Below are positions 10,395 through 38,730 of a DNA stretch of 64,000 nucleotides, one piece after another; the first letter of the stretch is position 1; every line of letters starts with the position of its first letter. The notes beneath the pieces were generated by a model. It did no database searches. It was not told where the DNA came from and saw only the letters and a program-made list of their open reading frames with translations. A program made the position numbers and the translations under genes. The DNA comes from an uncultured Gammaproteobacteria bacterium (GTDB taxonomy: Bacteria; Patescibacteriota; Patescibacteriia; SBBC01; CAIJZX01), in the NCBI GenBank assembly GCA_964349465.1, contig CAYGGC010000001.1, forward strand, positions 33,428 through 97,427. The letters run 5' to 3'.

Positions 10395-10561
10395 GGCGGA
10401 AGAAAATCCTGGTGAGTATAGCGAGGAACGAGAGGGTTGGCAACGCACGAGGGTAGCTTCGGAGAAGGAGGGGTAAAAAAGTCCCCCCGGCAGTCTTTTT
10501 TCTTGGTAACTCAAGACATTCTGTGGACTGATCTTAGCCAAAAAAATTAAAAAAAACGTAT

Positions 10562-10590
10562 TTGACATTCACTATCGAAAATCGTACAAT
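10562..10590 (+). promoter_or_regulatory. Consensus sigma70-type promoter TTGACA-17-TACAAT driving the giant surface-protein gene; divergent from LCP gene
   Basis: Perfect -35/-10 hexamers with 17-bp spacer; ATG 10607 lies ~10 nt after predicted TSS (short/leaderless). Confidence 0.5.
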
Positions 10591-10606
10591 ATATTTAGCA
10601 ATTTTC

Positions 10607-13600: not shown

Positions 13601-16600
13601 GGTGGTTGTCCGGATACGGCGGCGGAAGGTATCGGTGGACCGCAGGCCGGGATCGCATTCGAGCGATTCAGCGGCGAAGCTCTCCATGTCTTTAACGACG
13701 CCGCCAACGGTACGGCTCAGGGTAATATATACATGACGTACACACCGACCTCGACCTGGAGCGCCACCTCGACGACTGGTATTACCCCAAGCGACGACCA
13801 TCAATTCACCAAGCTGATTCCTTCACCGAACAGTGATGATATTATGGTTATCGCTGGTGACGTCGACTGCGACGTTGACGCGACAATGTGGGGTGGTTCC
13901 GCGCCGAGTACGGTTGGTTCGAACTTCGAGTTGTTGTTGTCGAGTTCGAATGGTTCATGCGCGAACTCTGTTCCGATTGCAGGCATGATGACGACGGGTG
14001 GTATTGATTTCGCTTGGAATATCTACTCCCCGTGGGGGTTGAACTGGCGGTGGACCGGCGATACGACAACGGCGAACCCGGGGTCGTACTTGGCAAACGA
14101 AAATGTGACCCCGACTGGCGTCGCTGACGCGACGACCGTTCGTTTGCGTTATGGCTTTGTGAACCGTGGGACAACGGCGCAGGCGCTTTCGGCCGAGGGC
14201 CGGAAAAAATTGCAATATACGAGTGACGACCCGGAAACGTTAACCGCGACGTGGGCTGACGTCGACGCTGATGATGGGGCCGGGATCTGGCGATATAACA
14301 ATTGTACGGCCGGAACTGACGATAGCGCGATTCCATCAGCGGTTCTGACCGCTCCGAGCGGCGGTTCAAATATCGTCGGTGATTTTATCGAAGGGTCGGG
14401 GAACATTACCCAGACCCACAGTGCCGGTCCGGCCGTCGCGATTGAAAATGATTATTGTATCGAGTCAAACGGTGCGACCGGAAGTACGACATACTATTTC
14501 CGCGCGTTTGATAACGAACAGCAGACTCCAGTCTGGCGCGAGCAAGACAACGACGGTGCGAACGACTGCGCGACCGCCGCTTGTACCTATCCAAGCTTGT
14601 CGACCGCCGCCCAGACGATTACGGTCAGTGGCACCTGCGACGCCTACGACCAAACGACGAACTGTGCCGACCTCGGTGATATCCGGGTCGCCGTCGGTGG
14701 TACGCTCCAATCTCAACTTGATACCCAGGGCGGCGGCGGACCTGGTGGCACCGACGGGACATTCTCGATCACCAGTGTTCCAAAACCTTCAGCGAACGCG
14801 ATTGTGACTGTCTTCGTTGATGGTGCGCCGGCGACGGCTAGTAATCGTGCTGTTGCGATCACTAAGTACGATGGCTCGGGTAGCATCAGCGGACTACAGT
14901 TGTTCAAAGAGCACCTAACAATCGGGTCGGCTGATACAGCCGCGACGCTAACCAGCGCGGAACTTGGATCATACGATAATTCTGTTTCGAGTAGTGACGC
15001 GGATGTTTTTCACGATTACAACGGTTCAACGACGTTTACCGTTGACTCAACCGGTTTTTCAACCCAGGAAGAACTGTATATCGGTTCCGGCTGGACCTAC
15101 CGCCCGGATTCCGGCGGCGGTGATACATTAACGACAACCAGCATCGAAATTGCGGCTGGAACATTAACCCTCGACAGCAATACGTTCAACGTCGGTGGTA
15201 GTTTCGATAACGACGGCGTTCTAACCGCCTCGACCTCGACCACGAACTTTACCGCCGCTTCCGGCACAAACACGATTGACGCCGATGGGACGGCCGCCGA
15301 GGCATTTTACAACGTTGTCTTTAATGATTCCGCTGGGTCCGCGACGTATCAACTCACGACCGTATTTGACGCGGATAATAACGTCACAATTACCGGTGGC
15401 AACTTTGACGCGAACTCGAACGCCGTGACGGTTGGCGGGAGTTGGGATAATGACGATACGTTTACGTCGGGCACGCAGACAACGACGTTTAACGCCCCCT
15501 CGGGGACCAAAACGATTGACGCTGACGGTACCGGCGCGGATTCATTTTCAAGTATCGTTTTCAATGACGCTGCCGGATCAGCAGTTTTCCAATTAACGAC
15601 CGCGATGGACGTGAATGTCGACTTGACGATCACTGGAGGAAACTTGCAGGCTCAGGGAAATCAAATTAACATTGGTGGCGTATTCGATAATGACGACACC
15701 TATACCCATGGCAACAACCTGATTGTTTTTGACGCTACGTCTGGTACGAAAAGTATGGATACTGATGGGACCGGAACCGAGGCACTCTACGATGTAACGT
15801 TTAATGACGGCGGCGGTTCAGCAACATTTGAGTTTTCCCAAGCTCTGGATATTGATCATAACGTGACTATTACGGGCGGCACCTTCTCCCGTACAGGCTC
15901 GTTTACAGTTGGGGGTAGTTGGGATAATGACGATTATTTCTTTGGGGATGGGGTTAATAATATTACCTTTGACGCGACATCCGGCACGGTGGCCATTGAC
16001 GCTCGTGGGAATTATGTTGAGTTTAGTCAGGCGGATTTTAGTATGCGGGTTGTGTTGAATGATGGCGGCGGTTCTGCGGTCTTTCAAATGACCACAGACG
16101 CGATTATTTCTAATGGTCTAGCTATTACCGGTGGCGAACTACAAGCCCAAGGACATTATATTGATCTCTGGGATGGAATTTTTGACAACGATGATACGTT
16201 TACTCACGGAAATGGCACCATCTATCTTGAAGCTAGCTCCGGAACGAACATCCACGACTTCGACGGAACCGGAACTGATGCGTTGTATAATCTTCAAATT
16301 GACGATGGCGGAGGAACGGCGACACACCAACTCTCGACCCTCCTCGACGTCGATAATAACTTAACGATTGTCGGCGGAACGCTCAACGCGAACAGTCAGG
16401 CGATCACTGTCGGTGGCAACTGGGATAACGACGATACGTTTACGTCCGGCACGGCGACCGTGACGTTCGATGCATCTGATACTGATAACACGATCGACGC
16501 TGACGGGACCGGGACGGATACGTTCTCCTCGGTGACCTTCGCAGGTGGTGATGGGAGCGGAACGTGGACTCTTACTACCGCGATGGATGTCACGGTGGCG

Positions 16601-19600
16601 ATGAATGTTGATACGAGCGATATTCTCTCGATCGATTCCGGGATGACACTCTCGCTTAATCGAACTACGACGGCCCAATCCCTGACCCTCAACGGGACAA
16701 TTCAGGGTGCCGGTCGGTTGACCTACCAACTCCCGACCAGCGTCGCAACCTTCCCGACGACCGGGACGATTAGTTCGATTTTGCGGTTTGATGCGACGAC
16801 GGACGTCCAGACCGTTCCAGAGCGAACGTATGGGGGTAATGTTGAATTGTATGAAGCGACTGGCGGGTGTGCATCCCGGACGTTTACTTTAGCTACAACC
16901 GCCGGGCAGACTCTCAACTTCAGCGGCGACCTGTCCTTGATCGAGGGTAACTGCGGCGGCGTTCCAGTGGCCGGCAATACAAATAATCCAATTGTGAACA
17001 TTACGGGTAACTTGACCCAAAACGCGAGTACGAATAGTAGCAGCATCACCGGCGGTACTCAAACCTGGACAGTTTCTGGATCAATTGATCTCCAAGATGG
17101 TGCCGCATCTTCGAGCATCACTAATCTGACCTTGAATGGTACAACAAAAACAATTGCGGTGGTCGGGTCACTTGACGTGACGGGCACCTTGACGATTGAC
17201 GGATCGTATACTGTAACTGCCAGTGCGACTAGTAATCTTTATGTTAGTGGAACCCTGATTGTTAACACCGGTAAAACTTTAGCCATCAATAGTGGCCAGT
17301 CGTTCCTCTGCGGCGGAACAGTGACACTCACCGGTACGGCACAAATATCCGGAGCCGGCACACTCACAGTCGCCTCTTCCAGCCTTGGTACTGGCGGGAC
17401 TCTTTCATCCATTGTCCGATTCGATGTATCAGGGGGTGATGTCACGATGCCAAATCGGACCTATGGTGGAGCGGTGGAGGTTTTCATGGACGATTCTGCC
17501 ACCGCCGCTCATAAGGTCATTATGGCCGGCGGAACACAAACACTACAGTCAAGTCTGTATGTCATTGATAATAGTAACACCTACAATCTCACCCTTGACG
17601 CCTCGAACGGCGGCGCGAACAACCCGACGGTTACAGTGACTGGTGATGTTGATTTTACCGGAACCGGGACGGGTTCCGAAGCGCTGATTACCGGCACGGG
17701 TACCTGGACCGTTGGTGGAAATATCGACTTTACGGGCGGGACGTTTACAGCCACGAGCGGCAACACGATGGAGATGACCGGTGCAAGTAAGACAATCACG
17801 ACGGCCGGGAGTGCACTTCATCACCTCACCGTCTCCGCGGGAAGTGTCACGGCCTCCGGAGCGACAACATTAAACGGCAATATGTTGATCTCTGGCGGGT
17901 CGTTCGCTGGTCCGGCCGCCGCGTTTAACGTCGCCGGGAACTGGACGAATTCGGGTGGTACCTATGTCGAGGGGACCGGAACAGTCACATTGAATGGCGC
18001 AACGTCAACGACGCTGAATTCTGGATGTAGTAACACGGACTCCTGCGCGAATAATAATTTTTACAACCTCGAAATTAATAAGACTGACGCGGCTGATGGA
18101 AATGACAACGTCACACTCGATACGAATGGTATCAATGTCGCGAATACGCTAACGATCACCGACGGCGAACTTGTGCAGGGCGCTCTCAATGTCCGGGCGG
18201 AAGGGGCGACGGCGGTTTCGATCGTGTCGACGGGTAAATGGAGCAATATTTCCACCGGTGACATTAAGCTCGGCGGAACGGCAACGAATAACGGGACCTG
18301 GTTGCTCGACGTTGGCGGGAATAGCGACGGTTGTGGTGGTGGTGATACCGATGATATAACCCTGACCACGACCGATGGAGCGACGCAACGATCGTTGGCT
18401 GGCTCTGGAACGTTTACTTGGTATGACGTCTCGGTCTCCTACATGAATGCGACGGTGGCGATTACGGTGAACGGCGGAACGAATGTGAGTAACAATGCCG
18501 GGAGCTTTACGTTTAATGCATGCGGTATCACCATTACCGGTACCATTTATTCTAATTCTGGCGGTGAGGCATCCGCCGTTTATAACTGCAGCTCGGATAA
18601 CCTTACTATCCATACTTCAATTTCCGGTGGCACATCGAGCAATGGAACGTGTACAGCCGTCGGCGGGACGTTCTCGATTGTTACGAACGGCCCTCCGTCA
18701 TCGGCTGGTGACCCGATCGTGTTATGGATTGATTCGGTTGAAACACCGAAGGCGACGACGGTGACCCTGGCGGCCGATACGAGTTCGAATATTTCTGGTC
18801 TCAATCTTATTCAGGATCGATTGATTCTGACGCACGAAAACGGCGGGCCGATGACGAACGCGAAATTGTCGACGGGGGATAATGGTAATGCTGGGATTCG
18901 CTATGCGGTCAGTGGCAGCAATTTGACCGTGGAAAGCGGAATGGAGCTGCATGTCGCGAGTACCAAGGCGTACACCCCGGGCGGGATGGTTACGACGACG
19001 GCTTCGGCGAGTCCATCAAGTGCGGCTGGCGATGTTCACGTCGTTGGGACAATGACGATGGGTACGTATGCGCTCTCCGTTGGCGGTGACCTAACGAACG
19101 GCGGGACGCTGTCCTTAAGCAGCGGTCAAACGACGACGATGACTGCCACCGGGTCTGGATTTACCATCACAGCCGGCGGCGCTTCATTCCAAGGCCTGAC
19201 CTTCAATGGCGCGAGCGGTGGGTGGACGAACAGTGGCGCGTTGACCGTCTCGGAAATTTGGACCGGGACGGCCGGTGGCTTCACGCAGGCCAACTCGACG
19301 ACAATAACCGTCAACGGAACCGCCTTTAGTTTGGCGAACGGCTTTACCTGGACGAAAGCAACGAGCGGCGCGAATTTGATCCTGGAGAATGCGACGAATC
19401 TCGATTTTACTGATAGCAATACAACCAAACAAGACCTCGGTGCCGTTCAGATCGGCGCCAGTCCCGGCGTGACAACGCTAAAGTCGGATATGAGCGCGAC
19501 GACCGTGACAATCCCAACGAGCGATACACTCAATACCAAGGGCTGGGACATTACGGCCAGCGGCGCGTTCGACTGTCAGGGGACCTGCACCTTAAACCTG

Positions 19601-22600
19601 ACCGATACGGCACCGAATAATGAAACTGACGGTACGATTATCGATGTCGGCGGCGACTTCACAATGTCCTCGAGCGCCACGTTTACGTCGTACTCAAATT
19701 CAACCGTCTATCTTAATTCGACGTCCGGGACTGATTCGAACCGAACATTTACAACCGGCGGAAAAGCCTACAATAATGTTGAATTGAAAAACGCTGGCGC
19801 GACGAATGACGATATTACGATTTCCGGTACGCCGTTTGATATTAACGGCACGCTCACGTTGACTGACGGTCAGGTTCGGCTCGATACGAACGATCCGAAT
19901 GTCACCCTGAACGGTAATCTTTCCATTAACGCCAATGCGACAGTCACGAAAGCCGATAACGGAACTGCGACCTGGACCTTCGACGGCGCGACCTCGCCGA
20001 CGACGTGGACCGACGGGACGGGGAGCGGCGGGCAGGATATTGGTTTAGCGATAATCAGCGGGACGACGAAGACGGTTAACCTCGCTTCGAGCGCGAAAGC
20101 GACGAAATTGACGATCGCCGCTAGTCAGGTATTTGGACTTGGGTCATCGGGGTATACTTTTACACTGACAGGGAGTGGGTTCACGCCAAACCATCCGTTA
20201 CAAAACAGTGGTACGTTGAATGAGGGGACAAACTCAACCGTGAAATTTACCGGGACATCTGATTCAGACATTGACCCCGAAGCGTTTCATCATTTAGAAA
20301 TTTCGCCTAGCGGCGCTGGGAGCCCAACCTTTACCTTCGATGTTGCGGAAACCGCAAATCCAACGACGGTCGCCGGAAATATGACTATTGGCGATTCAAC
20401 CAACGCTGTGTCTGTCCAACTTGGTACCTTTTCAGAACTAACCGTCGATGGAAATATCACGATTAGTACCAACGGAACCCTGCTTGGAAGTACTGATGTT
20501 GGGCTGAATCTTGGCGGCTCTTATACAAATAATGGCACTTTTACCGATGCTGGAAATGGAATTAATTTTACAGCCACAACTACCGGAAAGACGATCGCTG
20601 GTAATTTAACAGGTTCAAATAAGTTTTTTGCGATATTTTCCGGAAGCGGTGGAGAATGGACGAATACCAGCGCAGCTGAATTTACTGATCTCGCCATGCT
20701 TGATGGAACATTAGCAGGATCGAATAATATTACCGTTAATGGCGGGACCACAGGTACTGCAGGAATAATAAATCGCTCAGGTGGCACATTTACTCTTAAT
20801 CCTGCAAGCACATCCAGCTTCGGCCCTTCAACCGCCTCAACGTCTTGGACCTTTAACAACCTAACGTTTACCACAACGGCTGGATCGCAGATTACAACTA
20901 CTGTTACAACCTGCTCGACCTGTACATTTACGGTTAACGGGGCAATGAGTGTTGACGCAAAAGTAACTCTGACCATCGCTTCAAGTTCATGGACGGTTGT
21001 TGGGTCGTTAACAACAACAACAACTGGAGCGATTGCGTATACTGGGACACCAACCGTAACGGTGCAAGGCACGGCGCTCGGGGGCGGCACGGGGAATATC
21101 TACTTTTACAATCTCACAAAATCTGGCGCTGGCACGACGACCTGGAGCGGTACCGGGGTGAATGCCGTTCGGAATACCCTGACGCTGTCAGCTGGGACGC
21201 TGGTTGCGCCGAGTAACACACTCTATGTCAACACGTTTACCGAAAGTGGCGGTGCCTTTACACATAACTCGGGCACCGTGATGTTCAATACTGAGGCGAA
21301 CCAGACCCTGACCGCCTCCTCGACGTTTAATAACGTGACGTTCAACGATGGCTTAGTTGGTTGGTGGAATCTTGATGAAACTGCCGGTACGTCCGCCGCG
21401 GATAGTTCTGGGTATGGTCACACCGGAACCCACACAAACACGCCGACGATTAGCACCGATGTACCGACCGTAAACTTTGCCAATTCCCGAAGCTTGGATT
21501 TTAATGGCACAACACAATATGTCGATCTTGGGACGGCGCCGTTTATTAACACCGAATTCGCCGATAAAATTACGTTATCAGCGTGGGCAAAACCAGCAAA
21601 TTTAACAAACTCTGGGACGATTATTGGAAAATCCTTTGACACGAATCATAGTTCTCCTTTTTACCACTGGAACCTCTTTCAAACAGGCAGCCAGATTTGT
21701 TTTCGAGTTGGGAGTACAAATATTTGTAGCGCAACAAGTACGTTAACGACAAGTTGGCAATTGATCACTGGTGTCTACGATGGATCGAATATGTATCTCT
21801 ATCGCAATGGCACGCAGGTGGCGACAACCGCGAAAACAGGGAATGTCGGAAATGGGCTGCAAAGCGCACGAATCGCCGGTCGTGATACGCCGGGTGCCGG
21901 TTTATCGGAATACTTTGCTGGGAAAATTGATGATGTGCGTATTTATCGTCGTGCTTTATCCTCAGGCGAAGTGACGACGTTAAGCAACGGCGACGAATGG
22001 GGATTAACTGGCGCGACCTGGACTCTCGGCGCTGATCTAACGCTCGCCGGGACGCTCGGAATAAAAACCGGTACACTTGATACACATGTCACCAACAATC
22101 GGTCGATCACGGTCGGCAGTAGTTGGTTGAATGACGGGGGCGTCTTTACCGCTCGGGCCGGGACAGTGACGATGAATGCGGGCTCGTCGGGCAAAACAAT
22201 TACCGCCGGTCAGCAAAGTTTCTATCTCCTCAATCTCAATAACGCTAGTGGTGGCTGGACAATGAGTGAGGTCTATACGACCCCGACGATAACCGTGAGT
22301 AATAATATGGTTATTACGGCCGGAACGCTGACCTCGTTAGCGGGCACGCTGTCGGTCGGCGGAGATTTTAATAATGCCGGAACGTTCACGCATAACTCCG
22401 GAACCGTGACGATGACTGGGAGCTCGAAAAATATTACGGGTGGATCGGCGACGACCTTTAATAATCTCACGATTTCTGGCACAACCGGGGTTGACGCGGC
22501 GGGGAGTGATGCGACTGTTGCTAGCCAATTAACCGTCGACAATACCAAGACGCTGACGATCAACAGCGGTCGAACAGTGACACTCTCCGGTACGAGCGGA

Positions 22601-25600
22601 ACAACACTGTCCCTCGTCGGAACGATTACCGGTGCGGGGCGATTGACCTATAAAAATAACGCCACCGCCTTCCCCGCGACTGGCACCATCTCTTCCATTC
22701 TCCGCATGGATGCGACGGCCGGTGACCAATCGATTGGCGGTACCAACTCCGCAACGCGAACATTCGGCGGGTTAGTTGAAATATATTCGAACTCTGCCGG
22801 CACGGCAAAAACAGTAACGCTGGAAAACGGGACTGCTCGAACATTTGCCTTCTCCGGTGCGCTCAATATTATTGCTGACAATACACAAGATCTGACCTTA
22901 ACGGCGGATACCGCTACTGATCCTACTGTCACGGTTACTGGCGATATTGATTTTACTGGAACCGGTGGGGGATCCGAAATTTTGGTGGCTGGTTCTGGAA
23001 CATGGACGGTATCCGGAAATGTTGATTTCACAGCTGGTACCTATACTTCTACCAGCGGAAATAAACTGGTCATGAATGGGACATCAAAAACGTTAACTTC
23101 CGCGTCGCAGGCACTGTATGACTTTGAAGTGTCGGCTGGTACGGTAGCTATTTCTGATGCCACAACTATTTCTCGCGATATGATTCTCAGTGGCGGGACA
23201 CTCACGGGCCCAAGCGGACTGACGGTGAGTGTCGGGCGTGACTGGACGAAGACGAGTGGTTCCTATACAGCAAATACTGGAACTGTTGCCTTAACAACCT
23301 CGACATCGGCAACAATTAGCGGCAGTAACACCTTCTACAATTTGTCTGTTACTGGTATCGGCGCAGCAAAAACTGTGTTAACGGTGGCGGCGACGACGCA
23401 AACCGTTACTGGCACGTGGACGGTGACGGGAGCTTCAGGGCAATTGGTAACTATTAATGCGGCTACAGCAGCACAGTGGAACGTCAACCCAACCGCTGCC
23501 AGTCTTGATTATGTTGATATTTCCTACACAAATAACCAAGGATCGACAATTTGTGCAACTCATTCACAGTCTACCAGTGGAAATAATACAGCGATCACGG
23601 TGACTGCTGGGGCGGGTTGTGGAATTACCATCTCTGGAGTCATTCGTCAAAGCTCCAATGAAACTTCGGCCTATGATTGTTCAGCCAATACGTTGACCAT
23701 CGGAGCTGTTGTGAACGGAGGAACAAGTGCGACCGCTGATTGTACACTGAATACCGGTGTCTACTCGATTAATGCCGCCAACGCGCCATCTGCGGCCGGC
23801 GATCCAATCGTGGTCTATATTAATAATGGAGAAACGCCGATAGGTACAACCGTTTCTCTGTCAGTTGATACATCTTCAAATATTACCAACCTAGATATTA
23901 TTGACGGCCGTTTAGTCACAACGTATGAAAATGCCGGACCGATGACCAACGCAAAAATGGCCACTGGTGATAACGGGAATGCTGGTATTAGGTATTCCGT
24001 GGCCACAGGAAATCTTACCGTCGAGTCTGGAATTGAATTACATGTGAAGAGTGGAAAGACGTTTACACCGGGCGGCACAGTAACGACAACCGCTACTGGT
24101 ACAACAGCTGGGCCTGCAGGTGACCTTCATATTGCTGGAACCTTAACTATGGGCACAAATGCCTTAACCGTTGGTGGTGATTACAATAATGCTGGTACGT
24201 TCAATAAAACGAATACGCAAACGACGACCTTAGCGGCAACTGGCACCGGCTTCACGATTACACCTGGAACAGGCGATATGAATAATTTGACTGTCAGTGG
24301 CGACGCCGGTGGAAATGGAACATATACATTGTCTGGCGCAAATTTGACGGTCGATGGAATTTTGAATGTTAACACTGGTGACACGTTAGCAATTGATACC
24401 AGTCGAACGCTGACAAATTCTGGCTCAACAGACGCTAGCATTAGTGGCACGATTTCTGGTGCTGGAACATTACGATTTGTGAATGGATCTGGCGGTCCAG
24501 GTACGGGCGGTACCATTTCGGTATTAACTCTATTTGATGCTTCGAGCGGTGATATTGCGTCTACAACGGTTGATGCACGCACATATAGTGCAACAGTGGA
24601 ATTGTATGCGAGCTCGTCGAGTGATCGTACAATTACACTCCCATCGTCAACAATAACGTTGTCTGGGTCTTCCTCACATCTCCACATGAAAGCTGATGGC
24701 GCCGGCGACCTCACTGTCGACGGTGCCGCAAATAATCCAACCGTAACGGTTGGTGGAGATATTGCCCTTAACGGTACTGGTGGCGGCGTTGAAGCGTGGG
24801 TGGCCGGAGATAATACGTGGACTTCGTCTGGCAACGTTGATACGGCCCAAGGCTTTTATGCTCCGCATATGGCGGTTCTCAATCCAACCTGGGATAATTA
24901 TGGCTACGAACAGGATGATTATGCTGATGATGGCTTCGGTGGTTGTGATTTCTTAGGCACAAGCTCAAATGCGGGCACAAGTTCTTCGACCTCGCTTACT
25001 CAGGGGTATACAACTGGAGCCTCAACGTCATGTTCGCCATCGGGCACTGATTTCCGCTACCGATCATATTTAAAGTTTAACCTCTCTGGTATTTCAAACA
25101 CAAACACGGTAACTCGTGCAGACCTTCAGATTCATGCTTCAGCTGCCGGTGGAGCCTTTACGGTGTATCGCTCAAATAATGATGCGCCGGATGGTGTGGC
25201 AGCGGGTAGTTTGTATGCAGTGGGCTTAAGTACTGGCTTAAATAGCGTGTATAGTTATGCCACTGGAGTCAACATGATCCCAATGGCACTTGATGGCATG
25301 GCAAATATCCAAAGTTCACTTGGAAATGCCGCCTATGCGGTTGTGCTTGATGGTAGTTCAAGCCTCTCGACTTTGACTTCAACAGATAGTGCCACCAATA
25401 AACCTAAACTTCGAGTCGGATATGTCACCACAGCAACGACTCCGACCTTAGTCATGAATGGAACTGGAACGCTCTCTGGTGGAACGCAGTCTGGTTTTTA
25501 TAACTTGACGATGTCAGGGACAAACACCTTTAACGCCTCTCATGAGGCAAATATTTACAATACTCTGACCTTGTCTGGCTCGATTACGACCAACTCCGCT

Positions 25601-27124
25601 CCGGTGGTTATGGCTGGTTCTGCTTCAACCGTTATAGGTGGGAATAATACCTTAGGCAACCTGACGGTCAGTGGCGGAACCACGACCTTGACGACGTCTG
25701 ACCTCACGACGTCGCTCAATGTGCAACTCCTAAGCAGTGGTACTCTCTCCATCGCTTCGGGCCGAACCTTCACCGCGCAAGGCAATGTGCTTTTGAACTC
25801 GGGGACAACAATCTCGGGCGCTGGGACACTGACGATGACCTCAACATCATCGGGCCCAGGAACGGCCGGGACGTTATCCTCGGTTGCGCGTTATGATGCG
25901 ACGGGTGGAAATATCGCGAACACAACCCTTGATGCGCGAACCTATGGGGGAGCGGTGGAGTTCTATAGCAATAGTGGGAGCGCACGGACTGTGACCGCGC
26001 CGAGCTCCGGTACGTTTATATTCTCCTCAAGCGTTACGACTTCAAGTGTCGGTGGCAATACCTTGACGGTCGACCTTGACGATACAACTGATCCGACGGT
26101 GACGATTGCGGGGGCGACGACCCTTGGCGCGAATACGACAATGCAAGCACCAAGCAGTACCACTCTGACGCTGAACGGGAACTATACCAACAATGGAACA
26201 TTTACTGACAACAGTGGCACGGTCGCGTTGGCCGGATCTGCTCAACAAACCCTCTCGGGGACGATGACTGGATCGTCGGACTTCAATAACTTGACGGTCA
26301 CAAACGCTTCAGGATCAAATCCGGAATCAAGTCCATCGGTCATTTTCGGTGCGGCTGCCAGCGCGGCCGGGACGTTTACCGCGACAACAGCGGATACGAA
26401 ACTTCGTTTCACCTCGAGTGCGACCTACACCTTCTTGAATGTGACAATGAATGGGCAGGCCATCGGCACACGCGTCTACTTACGGAGCTCAAGCACGGGT
26501 ACACAATGGAACCTTGTCTCGACCGGAACCCAAACTGTTTCCAATACAGACGTGCGTGATTCGAACGCGTGCGGTGGAGATACGATCGATGCGATCGATG
26601 GGACGAGTCAAGACTCAACCCATAACGATTGCTGGAACATCAATACGATTAGTATGTCGATCTCGGATACGACGATTGGCTTCGGTGCCTGCACCTCGGG
26701 ATCCGCTAGATATGCGACAGGGGATACAAATGGGGCGTCGAGCGATAGTGCGGATGCACATACTATTTCCGTCGCGACAAACGCCCGAGGTGGGTATAGC
26801 CTGACGGTCACCGGCTCAACGCTGACCGGTACCGGTGGAACGATTACGGCGCTCGGCGGTTCGGCCACGGCTTCAAGTCCCGGATCCGAACAATTCGGAG
26901 CGCGGGCGATAAAGAATAGCGGCACGGGAACGGTGAGTAGCCCGTTCGACACCGCGAACTGGGCGTTTACCCCAAGCACGACGCAAACGGTCGCCAGCTA
27001 TACCGGAGCATCATCGAGTTACTCTGCCGCCTACGGTCTGCGCTATATTTGTAACGTGGCTGGAACAACGGAAGCGGGGAGTTATTCGACTGATCTGACG
27101 TACATTCTTACGGCGACGTTCTAG
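10607..27124 (+). CDS. Giant (~5,500 aa) repeat-rich cell-surface protein: N-terminal cytoplasmic excisionase/MerR-type HTH, single TM/signal anchor, then a huge extracellular region with beta-helix-like Thr/Gly/Asn-rich repeats, a LamG domain, a DNRLRE-like domain and a C-terminal ~150-aa domain shared with the next gene (ORF track starts at TTG 10562)
   Basis: Uninterrupted 16.5-kb ORF; HTH LTIRQTAKILHVHPNTLRAWDRKGKLRAVRFG; hydrophobic APALGLFLLLLGSGWA; multiple internal repeats. Confidence 0.85.
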   Translation: MEKRKLQRFFYRFYPRRLQRRSFVVSASRRPVFSDLPKFLTIRQTAKILHVHPNTLRAWDRKGKLRAVRFGSRHDRRYLRDEVAAAWALTYGRTPIARPNFALPPLRRYAPALGLFLLLLGSGWAEFSSAATEPATVEVYAQPRECSGWVQASAATKIELSPKSDFNKFSIANSAQIRSQDLGFTTDAGAATATFDRVDPELTCAHFSLDEKLTGSLSGTTVRIFLGTNGQLNSTDALKVSWSLDGKDWALVATESVKREEQQPIVIDLPAVTDSQRLADLRVRLQPDFSLNGDSSVFVDGVRVEARLHPPEPTPSVQSAPARQKELDRLTAFSKASYESDDQPEVTVPKQQTKRRFLFGKKVETWKLKDVSLIDSKSESMSVDYRSVDQVSGDDTNARLRLRMSSQHPGKYILRITMISPTGTIEVVEKTFLWGVLAVNITRANPAVGQTQLVGIGVLDDTGRTICDASVQATVTDPKGRKTQFETRNGSLKTNPTCVDKGVTNEADYHFALTLEQAGVYRVSVTADTTVGERKIEENFITEATQPFTVERVDYPTRIFPPAEYPVRIAITPKKDYLGLVTEEIPTDFTITNIFPAGTLRTVGTTVKKQFIEWLVEWKAGQTYYLTYTFDAPDISPALFLTGPLTIGGSFIAAPDFQESRQWQIASDAISANGNFYYGDTTNAGKIKMTPFTTASTYGTEVNVNLGPAVNIMHVVAKTAPTREEKMIGYISGNPTTDGRLDIVTGTTGFEAAGDYTLRWTATSVTDGQDCDAAPTAGTCTQAFDLGYEQLSGRGLVVYAGDADASGAPDADKIYYALWDGSAWSPDTTPNTPSATNELSLPGTGATPRWIRVVPAGDNLADERSNRAVVLVADSDDDLYAYYWDGSTFDAGTELFTTLGNCASARCFDGNWQGNNTFIVNYTNSGVSEVRYQKYSVGSGWGGDTQAFTTAATPSFLFSAADPTSSRIMIANFTSGNDTRGAVWRADDATDGWTVCASGGCPDTAAEGIGGPQAGIAFERFSGEALHVFNDAANGTAQGNIYMTYTPTSTWSATSTTGITPSDDHQFTKLIPSPNSDDIMVIAGDVDCDVDATMWGGSAPSTVGSNFELLLSSSNGSCANSVPIAGMMTTGGIDFAWNIYSPWGLNWRWTGDTTTANPGSYLANENVTPTGVADATTVRLRYGFVNRGTTAQALSAEGRKKLQYTSDDPETLTATWADVDADDGAGIWRYNNCTAGTDDSAIPSAVLTAPSGGSNIVGDFIEGSGNITQTHSAGPAVAIENDYCIESNGATGSTTYYFRAFDNEQQTPVWREQDNDGANDCATAACTYPSLSTAAQTITVSGTCDAYDQTTNCADLGDIRVAVGGTLQSQLDTQGGGGPGGTDGTFSITSVPKPSANAIVTVFVDGAPATASNRAVAITKYDGSGSISGLQLFKEHLTIGSADTAATLTSAELGSYDNSVSSSDADVFHDYNGSTTFTVDSTGFSTQEELYIGSGWTYRPDSGGGDTLTTTSIEIAAGTLTLDSNTFNVGGSFDNDGVLTASTSTTNFTAASGTNTIDADGTAAEAFYNVVFNDSAGSATYQLTTVFDADNNVTITGGNFDANSNAVTVGGSWDNDDTFTSGTQTTTFNAPSGTKTIDADGTGADSFSSIVFNDAAGSAVFQLTTAMDVNVDLTITGGNLQAQGNQINIGGVFDNDDTYTHGNNLIVFDATSGTKSMDTDGTGTEALYDVTFNDGGGSATFEFSQALDIDHNVTITGGTFSRTGSFTVGGSWDNDDYFFGDGVNNITFDATSGTVAIDARGNYVEFSQADFSMRVVLNDGGGSAVFQMTTDAIISNGLAITGGELQAQGHYIDLWDGIFDNDDTFTHGNGTIYLEASSGTNIHDFDGTGTDALYNLQIDDGGGTATHQLSTLLDVDNNLTIVGGTLNANSQAITVGGNWDNDDTFTSGTATVTFDASDTDNTIDADGTGTDTFSSVTFAGGDGSGTWTLTTAMDVTVAMNVDTSDILSIDSGMTLSLNRTTTAQSLTLNGTIQGAGRLTYQLPTSVATFPTTGTISSILRFDATTDVQTVPERTYGGNVELYEATGGCASRTFTLATTAGQTLNFSGDLSLIEGNCGGVPVAGNTNNPIVNITGNLTQNASTNSSSITGGTQTWTVSGSIDLQDGAASSSITNLTLNGTTKTIAVVGSLDVTGTLTIDGSYTVTASATSNLYVSGTLIVNTGKTLAINSGQSFLCGGTVTLTGTAQISGAGTLTVASSSLGTGGTLSSIVRFDVSGGDVTMPNRTYGGAVEVFMDDSATAAHKVIMAGGTQTLQSSLYVIDNSNTYNLTLDASNGGANNPTVTVTGDVDFTGTGTGSEALITGTGTWTVGGNIDFTGGTFTATSGNTMEMTGASKTITTAGSALHHLTVSAGSVTASGATTLNGNMLISGGSFAGPAAAFNVAGNWTNSGGTYVEGTGTVTLNGATSTTLNSGCSNTDSCANNNFYNLEINKTDAADGNDNVTLDTNGINVANTLTITDGELVQGALNVRAEGATAVSIVSTGKWSNISTGDIKLGGTATNNGTWLLDVGGNSDGCGGGDTDDITLTTTDGATQRSLAGSGTFTWYDVSVSYMNATVAITVNGGTNVSNNAGSFTFNACGITITGTIYSNSGGEASAVYNCSSDNLTIHTSISGGTSSNGTCTAVGGTFSIVTNGPPSSAGDPIVLWIDSVETPKATTVTLAADTSSNISGLNLIQDRLILTHENGGPMTNAKLSTGDNGNAGIRYAVSGSNLTVESGMELHVASTKAYTPGGMVTTTASASPSSAAGDVHVVGTMTMGTYALSVGGDLTNGGTLSLSSGQTTTMTATGSGFTITAGGASFQGLTFNGASGGWTNSGALTVSEIWTGTAGGFTQANSTTITVNGTAFSLANGFTWTKATSGANLILENATNLDFTDSNTTKQDLGAVQIGASPGVTTLKSDMSATTVTIPTSDTLNTKGWDITASGAFDCQGTCTLNLTDTAPNNETDGTIIDVGGDFTMSSSATFTSYSNSTVYLNSTSGTDSNRTFTTGGKAYNNVELKNAGATNDDITISGTPFDINGTLTLTDGQVRLDTNDPNVTLNGNLSINANATVTKADNGTATWTFDGATSPTTWTDGTGSGGQDIGLAIISGTTKTVNLASSAKATKLTIAASQVFGLGSSGYTFTLTGSGFTPNHPLQNSGTLNEGTNSTVKFTGTSDSDIDPEAFHHLEISPSGAGSPTFTFDVAETANPTTVAGNMTIGDSTNAVSVQLGTFSELTVDGNITISTNGTLLGSTDVGLNLGGSYTNNGTFTDAGNGINFTATTTGKTIAGNLTGSNKFFAIFSGSGGEWTNTSAAEFTDLAMLDGTLAGSNNITVNGGTTGTAGIINRSGGTFTLNPASTSSFGPSTASTSWTFNNLTFTTTAGSQITTTVTTCSTCTFTVNGAMSVDAKVTLTIASSSWTVVGSLTTTTTGAIAYTGTPTVTVQGTALGGGTGNIYFYNLTKSGAGTTTWSGTGVNAVRNTLTLSAGTLVAPSNTLYVNTFTESGGAFTHNSGTVMFNTEANQTLTASSTFNNVTFNDGLVGWWNLDETAGTSAADSSGYGHTGTHTNTPTISTDVPTVNFANSRSLDFNGTTQYVDLGTAPFINTEFADKITLSAWAKPANLTNSGTIIGKSFDTNHSSPFYHWNLFQTGSQICFRVGSTNICSATSTLTTSWQLITGVYDGSNMYLYRNGTQVATTAKTGNVGNGLQSARIAGRDTPGAGLSEYFAGKIDDVRIYRRALSSGEVTTLSNGDEWGLTGATWTLGADLTLAGTLGIKTGTLDTHVTNNRSITVGSSWLNDGGVFTARAGTVTMNAGSSGKTITAGQQSFYLLNLNNASGGWTMSEVYTTPTITVSNNMVITAGTLTSLAGTLSVGGDFNNAGTFTHNSGTVTMTGSSKNITGGSATTFNNLTISGTTGVDAAGSDATVASQLTVDNTKTLTINSGRTVTLSGTSGTTLSLVGTITGAGRLTYKNNATAFPATGTISSILRMDATAGDQSIGGTNSATRTFGGLVEIYSNSAGTAKTVTLENGTARTFAFSGALNIIADNTQDLTLTADTATDPTVTVTGDIDFTGTGGGSEILVAGSGTWTVSGNVDFTAGTYTSTSGNKLVMNGTSKTLTSASQALYDFEVSAGTVAISDATTISRDMILSGGTLTGPSGLTVSVGRDWTKTSGSYTANTGTVALTTSTSATISGSNTFYNLSVTGIGAAKTVLTVAATTQTVTGTWTVTGASGQLVTINAATAAQWNVNPTAASLDYVDISYTNNQGSTICATHSQSTSGNNTAITVTAGAGCGITISGVIRQSSNETSAYDCSANTLTIGAVVNGGTSATADCTLNTGVYSINAANAPSAAGDPIVVYINNGETPIGTTVSLSVDTSSNITNLDIIDGRLVTTYENAGPMTNAKMATGDNGNAGIRYSVATGNLTVESGIELHVKSGKTFTPGGTVTTTATGTTAGPAGDLHIAGTLTMGTNALTVGGDYNNAGTFNKTNTQTTTLAATGTGFTITPGTGDMNNLTVSGDAGGNGTYTLSGANLTVDGILNVNTGDTLAIDTSRTLTNSGSTDASISGTISGAGTLRFVNGSGGPGTGGTISVLTLFDASSGDIASTTVDARTYSATVELYASSSSDRTITLPSSTITLSGSSSHLHMKADGAGDLTVDGAANNPTVTVGGDIALNGTGGGVEAWVAGDNTWTSSGNVDTAQGFYAPHMAVLNPTWDNYGYEQDDYADDGFGGCDFLGTSSNAGTSSSTSLTQGYTTGASTSCSPSGTDFRYRSYLKFNLSGISNTNTVTRADLQIHASAAGGAFTVYRSNNDAPDGVAAGSLYAVGLSTGLNSVYSYATGVNMIPMALDGMANIQSSLGNAAYAVVLDGSSSLSTLTSTDSATNKPKLRVGYVTTATTPTLVMNGTGTLSGGTQSGFYNLTMSGTNTFNASHEANIYNTLTLSGSITTNSAPVVMAGSASTVIGGNNTLGNLTVSGGTTTLTTSDLTTSLNVQLLSSGTLSIASGRTFTAQGNVLLNSGTTISGAGTLTMTSTSSGPGTAGTLSSVARYDATGGNIANTTLDARTYGGAVEFYSNSGSARTVTAPSSGTFIFSSSVTTSSVGGNTLTVDLDDTTDPTVTIAGATTLGANTTMQAPSSTTLTLNGNYTNNGTFTDNSGTVALAGSAQQTLSGTMTGSSDFNNLTVTNASGSNPESSPSVIFGAAASAAGTFTATTADTKLRFTSSATYTFLNVTMNGQAIGTRVYLRSSSTGTQWNLVSTGTQTVSNTDVRDSNACGGDTIDAIDGTSQDSTHNDCWNINTISMSISDTTIGFGACTSGSARYATGDTNGASSDSADAHTISVATNARGGYSLTVTGSTLTGTGGTITALGGSATASSPGSEQFGARAIKNSGTGTVSSPFDTANWAFTPSTTQTVASYTGASSSYSAAYGLRYICNVAGTTEAGSYSTDLTYILTATF
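10730..10880 (+). other. Excisionase/MerR-type helix-turn-helix DNA-binding domain at N-terminus of the giant protein (cytoplasmic side of the TM segment)
   Basis: Motif …LTIRQTAKILHVHPNTLRAWDRKGKLRAVRFGSRHDRRYLRDEV… matches the HTH_17/excisionase family pattern. Confidence 0.55.
18515..19010 (+). repeat. Intragenic duplicated segment, copy 1 (~165 aa, NACGITITGTIYSNSGG…TTTASAS); ~65% aa identity to copy 2 at 23607-24100; GC ~52%
   Basis: Direct comparison of translated segments; third-position G/C rich. Confidence 0.6.
21330..21985 (+). other. LamG (concanavalin A-like lectin) domain within giant protein
   Basis: LVGWWNLDETAGTSAADSSGYGHTGT…LDFNGTTQYVDLG…ITLSAWAKP…WQLITGVYDGSNMYLYRNG…FAGKIDDVRIYRRALSSGEV matches the LamG family pattern. 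Confidence 0.65.
23607..24100 (+). repeat. Intragenic duplicated segment, copy 2 (GAGCGITISGVIRQSSNE…TTTATGT); GC ~45%, A/T-rich third positions, unlike copy 1
   Basis: Same amino-acid block encoded with different codon preference. Confidence 0.6.
24900..25440 (+). other. DNRLRE-like carbohydrate-binding-type domain within giant protein
   Basis: …FRYRSYLKFNLSGISNTNTVTRADLQIHASAAGG…KPKLRVGYV pattern. Confidence 0.4.
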
Positions 27125-27164
27125 GAGTAATGGTCAAGAGGGAGGGCTACGGAGTGACCCCCTT

Positions 27165-27193
27165 TTGACGTTTCCTAAAAATTGTGCTATACT
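27165..27193 (+). promoter_or_regulatory. Promoter TTGACG-17-TATACT upstream of the 360-aa secreted protein gene
   Basis: Good -35/-10 with 17-bp spacer, 70 bp upstream of ATG 27265. Confidence 0.45.
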
Positions 27194-27264
27194 ACATACA
27201 TATCAACATATCCCCTAAAGGCTGGGGATTTAAAAACCCATATTTTTAGCCAAAAAACACACTC

Positions 27265-28347
27265 ATGATACACCTTATGAACAAGTCCCAACGACGCGCA
27301 ATTTCGATAATTGCGATGTTTGCAGTTCTGTTTGGTGCAAATTTCGGCTTTGTAGGCATCGCGAACGCCGCAACGGTGACGAGCTTTAAAGACGTCCAAA
27401 CGACGCTCGTTGATTCGGCTAATTCAAACCACACCATTTCATGGGTTTCTCCGAGTGGGGTAGCAAACGCGTCGACAATTGTCCTCACTTTTGCGACAGG
27501 CTTCAGTTTAACTGGGGTGATTGAAAACGATATCGACATTGCCGGTTCAACGGAGGGAGAACTAACGACCGCAGCTGATTGTACCGGCGCTGAAAATGCT
27601 GGCGTCGTTCCATCAGGACAAACAATCACGATTACACTGTGTACTGGTGATGGTGGAGACTTTACAAACTCGGAGACCATTACGGTCGAAATCGGGACGA
27701 ACGCAACCGCGTCGGGGACTGGCGCGAACCAAATTAATAACCAAACGGAAGCGCAAAACAACTCTGATCCAAAAATTACCTTGACCTCGGGTGCCAGCGA
27801 TACTGGAAGCTTGTCGGTCGAAGTGATTGCCGATGATAGCGTGAACGTAACGGCGACGGTTGATCCTTCGATTACCTTTTCTATTTCTGACACAACGATT
27901 GGTTTTGGAACGTTGACCACTGGTGCGGCTCGATACGCCAACGGCGCAGCGAGTGGCTCAGCCTCGGTTACCCCCGCTCATACGTTAACAGCTGGTACGA
28001 ATGCGGCGTCTGGGGTGGCGGTTACGTACAATGGTGCGTTGTTAACGAGTGCCAGCAATAACATTGATGCGGCCTCGATCACGGGCGATGCGGATGGTAC
28101 ACCAGGGACCGAACAGTTTGCAATTAGTTTTGATGATAACGGTTCGGCCTTCACAATGGTCAGCGCCTACGATGAAGCTTCGAATAACTCGACTTTCGTC
28201 GCCAGCACAACGACAACCATCTTCTCCACGACCGCGCCGGTTGCTTCCACGGCCGTTGATGCACACTATCTCAGCAACATTGCCGCAAACACTCCGGCTG
28301 GTAGCTATTCAACAGATATTACCTATATTGCGACCGGTACGTTCTAA
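27265..28347 (+). CDS. Secreted 360-aa protein; signal peptide; C-terminal ~150 aa homologous to the C-terminus of the giant protein (…DTTIGFG…ARYA…AGSYSTDITYIATGTF), possibly WxL-like
   Basis: N-terminal signal (AMFAVLFGANFGFVGIANA); clear alignment of C-terminal domains of the two proteins. Confidence 0.8.
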   Translation: MIHLMNKSQRRAISIIAMFAVLFGANFGFVGIANAATVTSFKDVQTTLVDSANSNHTISWVSPSGVANASTIVLTFATGFSLTGVIENDIDIAGSTEGELTTAADCTGAENAGVVPSGQTITITLCTGDGGDFTNSETITVEIGTNATASGTGANQINNQTEAQNNSDPKITLTSGASDTGSLSVEVIADDSVNVTATVDPSITFSISDTTIGFGTLTTGAARYANGAASGSASVTPAHTLTAGTNAASGVAVTYNGALLTSASNNIDAASITGDADGTPGTEQFAISFDDNGSAFTMVSAYDEASNNSTFVASTTTTIFSTTAPVASTAVDAHYLSNIAANTPAGSYSTDITYIATGTF

Positions 28348-28386: not shown

Positions 28387-29391
28387 ATGCGCCAACGCAC
28401 TGCTCTCCTCGTCTCGCTCAGTGTGTTCCTCGCCGGCGTTTTTGGTGTTGGTTCGGCTCAGGCGCTAACGCTTGTTCCCCCGAGTCTTGAATACACATCA
28501 GCGAAGGGTCAGGTTATTGAGTCACGCGTCAAATTATTGAACAATGAAAATCGGACGCTGGTTTTGACACCCTCCACCGCCAATTTCGGCGCGAAAGATG
28601 AAACTGGCGAACCGGATTTTAAGTTTGACGCGCCTTCAGCTGATCTCTCAGCTTGGATCCAGATTGATAAAGCGCAATTAACACTTGATCCGGGTGAAAC
28701 AAAAGAAGTCCCGTTTACGATCGCCGTTCCGACCGACGCTGAACCAGGTGGTCATTACGCTGGGATTTTTTTCGCCAGCGGTGGCACGGCCACTGGTGGT
28801 GGACAAATCGGGGTTCAGTCGAAGCTCGGGACCCTTGTCATTTTGACGGTTGACGGGAATATTCGTGAACAAGCGGCCATTAGCTCGGTTAAACTTGACG
28901 GTCCTTCAAGCTTGAGCCGTCCTCCAGTCAACCTGAATGTACGAATTAAGAACAGCGGTAACGTTCATGTGAAACCAAAAGGCAAGGTCACTATTTTAAA
29001 TATGTTTGGTGGGGAAGTTGAAACGATTACCCTCCCGCAGGACAAGAATGTGTTGCCGGGCCAAACACGTCTCTTTGAAGTGTCTTGGGCGAAACGTTCG
29101 ACCGAGGCGAAGAAAGGAAATTTCTTCCAAGAAATTGGCGCTGAATTCTCTAACTTCGCACTTGGAACATACACGGCAAACGTTGAAGCAACCTATGGGC
29201 AAAACGATAAAACGATGATTGGGAAGGTCCAATTCGTGATTATCCCATGGCACGCTCTATTAGTTCTGTTCTTGGGCTTAGTGCTGATCATCATCGTCTT
29301 TACGGTTGGTCTCAAATCCTACAATCAAATGGTGATTCGCAAGGCGCAGGCCGCGATGACCAAATCGACGCCGCCGGAAATAAAGAAATAA
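28387..29391 (+). CDS. Cell-surface protein with signal peptide and C-terminal TM anchor + short basic tail; architecture resembles DUF916/DUF3324 (CscA-like) proteins of WxL loci
   Basis: Signal peptide, beta-rich ectodomain, C-terminal helix IIPWHALLVLFLGLVLIIIVFTVGL then KSYNQMVIRKAQ…. Confidence 0.75.
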   Translation: MRQRTALLVSLSVFLAGVFGVGSAQALTLVPPSLEYTSAKGQVIESRVKLLNNENRTLVLTPSTANFGAKDETGEPDFKFDAPSADLSAWIQIDKAQLTLDPGETKEVPFTIAVPTDAEPGGHYAGIFFASGGTATGGGQIGVQSKLGTLVILTVDGNIREQAAISSVKLDGPSSLSRPPVNLNVRIKNSGNVHVKPKGKVTILNMFGGEVETITLPQDKNVLPGQTRLFEVSWAKRSTEAKKGNFFQEIGAEFSNFALGTYTANVEATYGQNDKTMIGKVQFVIIPWHALLVLFLGLVLIIIVFTVGLKSYNQMVIRKAQAAMTKSTPPEIKK

Positions 29392-29397
29392 ATATCG

Positions 29398-30252
29398 ATG
29401 GGGTGGAGATCGTTAACGATCCGTGGGGCGCTGATCTTAATCAGCGTTTTTACGATTTTTTCCTGGCCGAGTGACGCCAAGGCATTTGATGTTACAGTGA
29501 CGGCGACGGTTGTTGATGAAAGTTCGACGCCCCCGGCAAATCCGGTTGTTGAGTTTAAGGGCGTGGCAGCGCCACGAGGTGTGGTGTCGGTGGCGCGAAA
29601 TGGTGTAGTGATTATGACAAGTCCAACCGGCGATTCGGCAGCGTTTGATATTGTAATCGCCGATCAACCAGTAGGTCAGCAGATCTACGATATTACGGCG
29701 GTTGACAATGATGGGCGGTCGTTAACGCCGATGACCTTTGCACTAAATCTCAGCCTTGGTTCAACGACGATTATTCTCGGAATTTTTCTCGGGCCATCCA
29801 TCACGATTGATAAACCGGAAGTGAAGTTGGGCGAAACCGTAACCGTGGCCGGTGCGACGTTGCCGAACAGTACGGTGACCGTGACGGTGAATTCAGTCCA
29901 GGTCAAAAACTATAGTTTTTTGGCCGACGCGAATGGTCGGTGGCAGAAAGATATCAATACCGCCGATATTGGAGTTGGTAGTCATACCGCGAAGGCGCAA
30001 GCGACGATGTCTGGAACTGGCGTATCGGAATTTAGTTCGAGCGTCGCGTTCGCGGTCAACCCCCTCGGACAATGCGATGCAAAAAAAAGTTCCGATTTGA
30101 ACTGTGACGGACGGGTGAACTTAACGGACTTTAGTATCTTGTTATTCTTCTGGCAGCAGCGAAATCCGGCGAATGCTCGGGCTGACGTTAACGCCGATAG
30201 CCGGGTGACCATCGTTGATTTTAGTATCATGTTGTTCCAATGGACCGGATAA
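29398..30252 (+). CDS. Secreted Ig-like protein with C-terminal type-I dockerin module (two Ca-binding repeats)
   Basis: DLNCDGRVNLTDFSILLFFW and DVNADSRVTIVDFSIMLFQW = canonical DxNxDGxVNxxD dockerin repeats. Confidence 0.8.
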   Translation: MGWRSLTIRGALILISVFTIFSWPSDAKAFDVTVTATVVDESSTPPANPVVEFKGVAAPRGVVSVARNGVVIMTSPTGDSAAFDIVIADQPVGQQIYDITAVDNDGRSLTPMTFALNLSLGSTTIILGIFLGPSITIDKPEVKLGETVTVAGATLPNSTVTVTVNSVQVKNYSFLADANGRWQKDINTADIGVGSHTAKAQATMSGTGVSEFSSSVAFAVNPLGQCDAKKSSDLNCDGRVNLTDFSILLFFWQQRNPANARADVNADSRVTIVDFSIMLFQWTG

Positions 30253-31358: not shown

Positions 31359-31383
31359 CTATTTTGTGGTATACTCATAGCCT

Positions 31384-38705: not shown

Positions 38706-38730
38706 ATCAATTCAAAACTCTTCCCGTTTC

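Follow-up and report, generated by a model that had tools for sequence, protein, structure and literature searches.

The window analysed here is a 64,000-nt stretch of contig CAYGGC010000001.1, and all coordinates below are positions within it. On its forward strand lies a giant gene of 16.5 kb (10607–27124) with a product of 5505 aa. We found this gene to be a genuine patchwork of blocks that differ in codon usage and in their closest relatives. The mechanically called open reading frame (ORF; 10562–27124, forward strand) starts at a TTG; in the ENA assembly of the same population, the gene starts at the ATG at 10607 and its product likewise has 5505 aa. The TTG overlaps the start of a divergent LytR-family gene (8868–10568, reverse strand) at 10562–10568. 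With the 508 aa that NCBI assigns to this LytR protein, the divergent promoter region before the giant gene would be longer.

Two confident Pfam domains were found in the giant protein. One is an N-terminal HTH_17 domain (MerR-type helix-turn-helix, HTH) at 10721–10861 (PF12728; 31.3 bits, cut-off 27), and its motif LPKF(L/I)(T/S)(I/L)(R/S)QTA..L.VHPNTLR.WD is kept in all three relatives (R1, R2 and R3) that were found by walking from conserved neighbour genes. The other is a LamG domain (Laminin_G_3, PF13385; 86.1 bits, gathering threshold 27.6), which extends from DGLVGWWNLDE to RALSSGE at 21347–21970. A lectin-type domain at 24983–25411 matched CBM96 (PF24517; 24.2 bits, E=3.3e-5) below the gathering threshold of 26 and is hence named CBM96-like only. 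The HTH, which is probably cytoplasmic, is followed by a hydrophobic segment, YAPALGLFLLLLGSGWAEF (10931–10987), that by sequence and hydropathy would be a membrane anchor or signal anchor. The remaining ~5300 aa are rich in Thr, Gly, Ser, Ala and Asn. A DNA-binding-type HTH tethered to an ectodomain of 5300 aa is an odd architecture; the protein is perhaps a membrane-bound one-component regulator.

An AlphaFold2 model of 22442–23521, obtained with an alignment of 31 sequences, was an all-beta solenoid with short strands throughout (pLDDT 92.7, pTM 0.91), i.e. it had the beta-helical passenger fold of two-partner secretion (TPS) and autotransporter adhesins. Foldseek matches to this model in the PDB were weak (E≥0.098, TM≤0.3), and all were beta-helix proteins (adhesins, tailspikes and antifreeze proteins), with UpaB, HMW1, TibA and EtpA as the best. 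A PDB sequence search with the giant protein gave no match, and Pfam and NCBIfam revealed no TPS domain (PF05860), autotransporter barrel or other secretion domain in it. We infer that the product would be a cell-surface fibre, consisting of the N-terminal HTH, one hydrophobic anchor and a beta-solenoid stalk of ~5300 aa with lectin-like domains. Judged by fold and domains only, such an anchored fibre with lectin-like inserts would most plausibly serve an episymbiotic cell for adhesion or recognition.

GC3 blocks within the giant gene

We scanned the GC content at third codon positions (GC3) in windows of 150 codons with 140 such windows, taken from the remaining 33 genes of the 64-kb stretch, as reference. 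The GC3 of the giant gene was 0.537 overall, and its 150-codon windows spanned 0.34–0.72. In the other genes, the mean was 0.569 (standard deviation 0.050) and the minimum was 0.467. Among 100-codon windows, the GC3 variance in the giant gene was 4.4 times the binomial expectation, compared with 0.5–1.0 times in the window's long housekeeping genes and in its other giant gene. A second large gene (38662–44325; 1887 aa, T4SS_pilin and Big_5 domains) provided an internal control: its GC3 was homogeneous at 0.56 and formed a single segment. A preceding sequence-only reading of this DNA had proposed that the composition of the giant gene is heterogeneous, and the sliding-window scan confirms a heterogeneity far beyond chance.

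Penalised-likelihood segmentation of GC3 divided the gene into ten alternating blocks with values of ~0.60 and ~0.40. The nine breaks lie at 12230, 15539, 16316, 20120, 21059, 21347, 21971, 22772 and 25502. The gain in log-likelihood per breakpoint was 7.9–25.4, compared with 7.4 at the 99th percentile of the best single split in shuffled sequences, and support intervals extend roughly ±15–60 codons around the breaks. Block 1 (10562–12229; GC3 0.47) is part of a conserved N-terminal module, the sequence of which continues to nt ~12622 and is collinear in R1, R2 and R3. Block 2 (12230–15538; 0.63, with a peak of 0.72) is from nt 12623 onwards without counterpart in these relatives. Block 3 (15539–16315; 0.44) holds copies 3–4 of a family of 80-aa repeats, and block 4 (16316–20119; 0.61) holds the first two copies of a longer repeat unit and a paralogous block, A, all described below. 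The next block, low1 (20120–21058; 0.38), has a support interval of 20096–20285 and is separated by a short high-GC3 block (21059–21346; 0.70) from low2 (21347–21970; 0.43). Low2 corresponds to the LamG domain, its block edges falling at the domain edges with support intervals of about ±50 aa. Another high-GC3 block (21971–22771; 0.61) precedes low3 (22772–25501; 0.40), which contains the CBM96-like domain, and block 10 (25502–27121; 0.59) covers the C-terminal region.

Two lower-GC stretches that had been noticed at ~20500–21060 and ~22860–25700 were thereby recovered, with limits refined to 20120–21058 and 22772–25501. Low GC3 was found in addition in the LamG domain (21347–21970), in two of the 80-aa repeats at 15539–16315 and in the N-terminal module. 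The two longest antisense ORFs in the gene, at 20521–21090 (reverse strand, 189 aa) and 24181–24834 (reverse strand, 217 aa), both lie in low-GC3 blocks. A Pfam scan of these two ORFs gave no match, and they are probably a by-product of composition.

When pooled, the low blocks (1431 codons) had a GC3 of 0.401, and the high blocks next to them one of 0.608 (z=−12.4). GC content at first and second codon positions (GC1 and GC2) was unchanged (GC1, 0.454 in low vs 0.452 in high blocks; GC2, 0.574 vs 0.581), as was the amino-acid composition. In the low blocks, all 16 synonymous codon families examined were shifted, with A-ending and T-ending codons both gaining, and the high blocks had the codon usage of the other genes in the window. 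Since all synonymous families shift at constant amino-acid composition, a composition artefact was ruled out and the difference is a true difference in codon usage.

A shift that is confined to third positions and leaves the amino acids unchanged also speaks for a local cause in situ, by which the low blocks would have been inherited vertically with their synonymous sites at a different equilibrium. Such an equilibrium could result from weaker selection or weaker GC-biased gene conversion in segments unable to recombine with relatives, from selection for rare codons and slow translation near certain modules, or from mutation that differs locally. However, at 0.40 the GC3 of the low blocks is lower than the GC of the window's intergenic DNA (0.506), and therefore a relaxation toward the local neutral composition is insufficient. 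Moreover, the sharp alternation over 300–2700 nt within one transcript would be hard to obtain from mutation bias, and the lineage-specific segment 12623–15538 has a high GC3, contrary to the rule that non-recombining segments become AT-rich. Considering also the comparisons with relatives presented below, we regard a local in-situ cause as possible but rather doubtful.

Intragenic repeats and integrity of the assembly

Intragenic copies were located by BLAST of the protein in chunks against itself. Five copies of a ~200-aa unit had been suggested from the sequence alone, and five are present, with a unit size of ~190 aa. They are located at 16586–17155, 17189–17761, 22466–23059, 24278–24859 and 25733–26287 (GC3 0.57, 0.52, 0.50, 0.39 and 0.59, respectively) and are 32–48% identical pairwise. 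Six tandem repeats of ~80 aa at 15218–16675 are 23–56% identical, and copies 3–4 have a GC3 of 0.41–0.45. The largest pair consists of paralog block A (17165–19276; GC3 0.59) and paralog block B (22442–24379; GC3 0.44), which share 47.7% amino-acid identity over 631 aligned codons. The part of block B that was modelled (22442–23521) is the beta-solenoid described above.

Within these blocks, the segments 18515–19010 and 23607–24100 had been put forward as an example of paralogous copies with different synonymous codons, the upstream copy being the one richer in GC. This direction holds, and the figures given for it are slightly off: the amino-acid identity is 60% and not ~65%, and the GC contents are 53.6 and 48.0% and not ~52 and 45%. 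In GC3, the upstream copy has 0.60 and the downstream copy 0.41. Where the amino acid is identical, a GC-ending codon upstream was combined with an AT-ending codon downstream 29 times and the reverse was found 10 times (p=0.003).

Between paralogous copies, the same codon was used at identical amino acids in only 0.33–0.42 of cases, so that synonymous sites are saturated and the repeats are ancient. Exact repeats of at least 21 nt were not found anywhere in the 64-kb window. The repeat copies are 34–60% identical in nucleotides, and arrays of perfect or near-perfect DNA repeats are not present. With copies 32–60% identical, saturated synonymous sites and no exact repeat of at least 21 nt, the gene did not arise by simple recent tandem duplication in situ, as the sequence-only reading had already argued. 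The same findings rule out collapsed repeats, for which that reading had advised a check. An FYNL motif common to two low-to-high transitions was considered as a crossover site and rejected, as no conserved DNA was present there.

An alternation of this kind could also be produced by an assembly chimera, in which homologous giant genes of two co-occurring populations with different GC were joined. The data are metagenomic, and independent assemblies of the same population break at ~22127, ~26784 and ~27183, with one contig starting at 27043. Against this stands the agreement of three other assemblies of this population (an ENA MEGAHIT k141 contig and two Logan contigs), which stem from different runs and assemblers and match the window at 1–20568. 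They are 100% identical to it through 20568, one with a single mismatch in 15 kb, and thus include the 20120 junction. The agreement in sequence stops short of the later junctions, and cross-assembly support beyond 20568 comes from product lengths and the open frame and not from read sequence: the ENA contig encodes the product in full, with exactly 5505 aa, and the frame of one Logan contig is open to ~26784. In addition, a chimera would need nine successive in-frame joins, and no exact repeat of at least 21 nt is available to mislead an assembler. We consider a chimeric origin of the blocks very unlikely.

The breaks of the independent assemblies cluster near the 3′ end of the gene and the 191-nt spacer that follows it (27125–27315; 41% GC). 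No repeat of at least 21 nt in the window accounts for them.

The locus in related genomes and the origin of the blocks

The giant gene is surrounded by core genes, encoding TopA, DprA, Mfd, Pth, a LytR-family protein, signal peptidase, HisRS, FtsA, FtsZ and class II ribonucleotide reductase, and small cohesin/dockerin-type proteins are also encoded nearby. The homologues of TopA and LytR carry the source names Candidatus Kerfeldbacteria or Patescibacteria, and by these named homologues the host organism is classed as a Kerfeldbacteria-related Patescibacterium. R1, R2 and R3 share the gene order TopA-DprA-Mfd-Pth-LytR-giant gene with the window. By TopA, R3 is the closest relative (90% identity; locus GC 0.525), and the first 713 aa of its giant product were read, to the contig end. 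R1 (86%; locus GC 0.566) has a giant product of 3581 aa, of which the first 3263 aa were read, and R2 (79–81%; locus GC 0.575) one of 3724–3840 aa, of which about the first 3200–3308 aa were read.

Collinearity among all four genomes covers the first ~670 aa of the giant protein (36–83% identity) and extends up to the motif QWQIASDxIS. Past this module, nt 12623–16546 of the window, aa 694–1825 of R1 and the sequence of R2 are mutually unrelated. Further downstream, collinearity resumes with different partners. Nucleotides 17627–~20090 are collinear with R2 (55–88% amino-acid identity), and the matches of R1 there are at paralog level only; nt ~23027–24800, inside low3, are collinear with R1 (50–81%), and here it is R2 that matches at paralog level only. 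The end of the R2 collinearity (~20090–20100) coincides with the GC3 break at 20120, where low1 starts. Most of low3 is present in R1, whereas low1, the LamG domain and the CBM96-like block had no counterpart in the first 3263 aa of R1 and the first 3308 aa of R2, the last ~320 and ~530 aa, respectively, lying outside the comparison.

The duplicated module gave a consistent picture. Its pairwise identity was 0.59 between block A and R2 and 0.67 between block B and R1, compared with 0.53 between A and B. In the best 120-aa chunks, block A reached up to 88% identity to R2 and block B up to 81% identity to R1, and the 3′ third of the module clearly groups A with R2 and B with R1. By these sequence comparisons, the intragenic paralogs A and B would have orthologue-like partners in two different relatives, A in R2 and B in R1, which suggests either that an old duplication was followed by differential loss or that lineages exchanged the module.

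Two observations on the relatives may be added. In each of two separate samples, the R3 contig stops at aa 713, ~40 aa past the conserved N-terminal module, which suggests that strain heterogeneity in R3 begins right at the end of this module. The R2 orthologue has a sharp low-GC3 block of its own (aa 3070–3308; 0.50 vs 0.78), which is similar to the window gene at paralog level only.

We then asked whether low GC3 belongs to the module or to the copy. The R1 counterpart of low3 had a GC3 of 0.63–0.73, which is the background of R1 (0.667 in neighbour genes). The GC3 difference between the window and R1 was −0.293±0.030 in this counterpart and −0.104±0.011 in five housekeeping genes. As the R1 counterpart has a normal GC3, low GC3 is not a property of the module but a property of this copy. 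An intrinsically low GC3 of LamG domains was ruled out with 11 homologous loci, in which the mean difference to the flanks was −0.001. These results argue against the local in-situ cause considered above. Among ten homologous giant genes of other Patescibacteria and allies, six have GC3 blocks (2–5 each) and four are homogeneous; housekeeping genes are without blocks.

The simplest account, for which we see about equal chances of being right or wrong, is that the gene was rebuilt module by module through recombination and that the blocks with a GC3 of 0.40 are comparatively recent arrivals from lower-GC lineages. Beyond the conserved 670-aa N-terminal module, each lineage would have remodelled the locus, gaining, losing and replacing modules by recombination with diverged homologues from other lineages. 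Uptake of DNA is plausible in this setting because dprA lies 7 kb from the giant gene. Blocks at the codon usage of the host (GC3 ~0.6) would be long-resident, and the GC3 ~0.40 blocks at 20120–21058, 21347–21970 (LamG) and 22772–25501 would be later arrivals from lower-GC donors that are not yet ameliorated. The compositional blocks, the old divergence of the repeats, the module content and closest relative that change from segment to segment, and the modelled beta-solenoid fold are established by the data; the direction of transfer, the lower GC of the donors, the recent timing and a function in recognising hosts or surfaces are inferred.

Several findings weigh against this account, and some of them favour vertical inheritance of the low blocks. 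First, the best external identity to the low blocks was 41–52% in searches of 5.8 billion proteins, GTDB species genomes and JGI metagenomes, so no donor came to light; the scans of GTDB species genomes and JGI metagenomes gave nothing above 44% identity. All matches in the homologue search were ≤1520 aa, and full-length giant orthologues are not among them. Second, the closest relative of low3 is R1, which is at most 81% identical per chunk, higher in GC and opposite in composition, and the genomic GC of R1, R2 and R3 (0.525–0.58) equals or exceeds that of the window genome. The lower-GC relative that had been proposed as recombination partner was thus not found, all sampled relatives being of equal or higher GC; what the comparison of orthologues upholds of the earlier proposal of domain shuffling or recombination is the gain, loss or replacement of modules at the locus. 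Third, the N-terminal module is depressed in GC3 relative to the rest of the gene in the window genome (0.47 vs ~0.60), in R1 (aa 1–577; 0.55 vs 0.68) and in R2 (aa 1–766; 0.63 vs 0.78). This module is an inherited local depression (0.06–0.12), which can therefore occur without transfer. Fourth, the nonsynonymous divergence (dN) between the window and R1 is 0.16–0.40 in low3 and thus similar to that in the vertically inherited N-terminal module (0.24–0.56).

Two further points concern timing and the lower codon positions. Synonymous sites are saturated against every available relative (proportion of synonymous differences 0.65–0.85), even against the closest, R3, and therefore synonymous divergence cannot be used to date any exchange. 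A regression over 27 homologous giant ORFs predicts a GC1 shift of −0.043 for the low blocks, and +0.002±0.017 was observed. Aligned genes of close relatives that differ by 0.1–0.3 in GC3 are also without a GC1 or GC2 shift, so that the missing shift is weak evidence either way.

Two other lines of enquiry were abandoned. The GC of the best-match loci (0.47–0.50 for 20120–21058 and 22772–25501; 0.51–0.55 for the high blocks) gave a weak hint at best and was not used as evidence, as identities were 37–47%. A phage origin was ruled out, as only generic LamG matches of 28–30% were obtained.

The locus is hypervariable between species, and the R3 contigs of two samples end just past the conserved module. 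Both points could be reconciled with programmed variation, in which the low blocks would derive from silent cassettes, from a diversity-generating retroelement (DGR) or from slipped-strand diversification. Yet the 64-kb window holds no protein or DNA copy of parts of the gene elsewhere, which rules out silent cassettes there, save the C-terminal domain of the giant protein (26450–27121). This domain is common to the C-terminus of the next gene (27667–28344; tblastn, 34% identity over 233 aa, E=1e-20). Neither the nearby reverse transcriptase nor the template repeat of a DGR was found in the 64 kb, and the neighbouring genes scanned contained no reverse transcriptase, recombinase or mobile-element domain. 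Perfect repeats are absent, and the population is nearly clonal across samples. We regard programmed variation as extremely unlikely. The antigenic or adhesive variation envisaged earlier is therefore to be divided: hypervariability between species is borne out, but variation within the population is not, with three assemblies 1 nt apart in 15 kb and no repeats for recombination.

The next gene (27316–28347), which carries the homologue of the ~224-aa C-terminus, is followed by a gene with a weak match to the peptidoglycan-binding domain of WxL-interacting proteins and then by cohesin/dockerin-type genes (28387–34421). The giant gene and the genes downstream of it to 34421 may form a surface-attachment gene cluster.

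Returning to module exchange by recombination, one may extend it to a more specific conjecture, which we think improbable. The locus would serve the recognition of hosts or surfaces as a 'swap site' at the species level: a conserved N-terminal module of HTH and anchor would be fused to a beta-solenoid stalk, whose segments and lectin-like cargo (LamG, CBM96-like) would be exchanged by natural transformation between lineages of different GC. The low-GC3 blocks would be the latest captures, and the cytoplasmic HTH might couple fibre contact to transcription, as in a one-component regulator with an ectodomain of 5300 aa.

Comparison with known systems

Mosaic genes formed by interspecies homologous recombination include pbp2x and pbp2b of Streptococcus pneumoniae and penA of Neisseria. 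For these classic examples, it is known which species was the donor, near-identical donor blocks have been identified, and nucleotide divergence amounts to ~5–20%. The giant gene resembles them in its intact ORF, its sharp alternating blocks with different closest relatives, and the competence gene dprA nearby. As in a mosaic gene, neighbouring blocks within the ORF differ in their closest relatives, and the block edges are marked by compositional discontinuities, here nine GC3 change points. Unlike in pbp2x, pbp2b and penA, a near-identical donor block was not found and no donor is known; synonymous sites are saturated, and the blocks are recognized by a GC3 of 0.40 vs 0.60. Moreover, whole modules are gained and lost at the locus and not just replaced.

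According to the model of Lawrence and Ochman, atypical acquired DNA reportedly ameliorates later. The low blocks are like such DNA in being AT-richer than the host, with the signal strongest at third codon positions and first and second positions lagging. Their codon usage departs from that of the host in all 16 synonymous families examined, as expected of non-ameliorated DNA. They differ in being in-frame pieces of one gene and not whole genes or islands, and they give no time estimate.

Giant repetitive surface proteins have been described in uncultured bacteria, Omnitrophota and others (bioRxiv 10.1101/2023.11.21.568195); a search of that text for the terms 'codon', 'recombination' and 'mosaic' gave no occurrence. 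The giant protein shares with these giant proteins and with filamentous haemagglutinin (FHA), HMW1 and autotransporter adhesins its huge size and, by prediction, the beta-solenoid stalk, lectin-like inserts and location at the cell surface. It differs from FHA, HMW1 and autotransporters by having no TPS domain or barrel, and carries an HTH_17 domain and one hydrophobic anchor instead.

In a Gracilibacterium, a hypervariable repeat gene contains arrays of perfect 9-nt repeats that vary within the population (PMC6851277). The giant gene is similar to it as a surface-type gene of the candidate phyla radiation that fragments assemblies; the Gracilibacterium gene is thought to be under diversifying pressure. 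In contrast to the latter, the giant gene has no perfect repeat of at least 21 nt and almost no within-population variation.

Giant surface proteins are most likely the contact organs of ultra-small, host-dependent Patescibacteria, and their evolution is poorly documented. The gene analysed here offers a clean, quantified case of module-by-module rebuilding between related species, in which codon composition alone delimits modules to ~50 codons, including lectin-like cargo domains. In other giant genes, GC3 segmentation may thus be a cheap means of mapping where modules begin and end and which of them are candidates for recent acquisition; blocks were present in six of the ten homologues examined. 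Mosaic surface-protein genes, atypical acquired DNA and giant repetitive proteins are all known, and the giant gene is a clear example of these phenomena rather than a case of a new mechanism.

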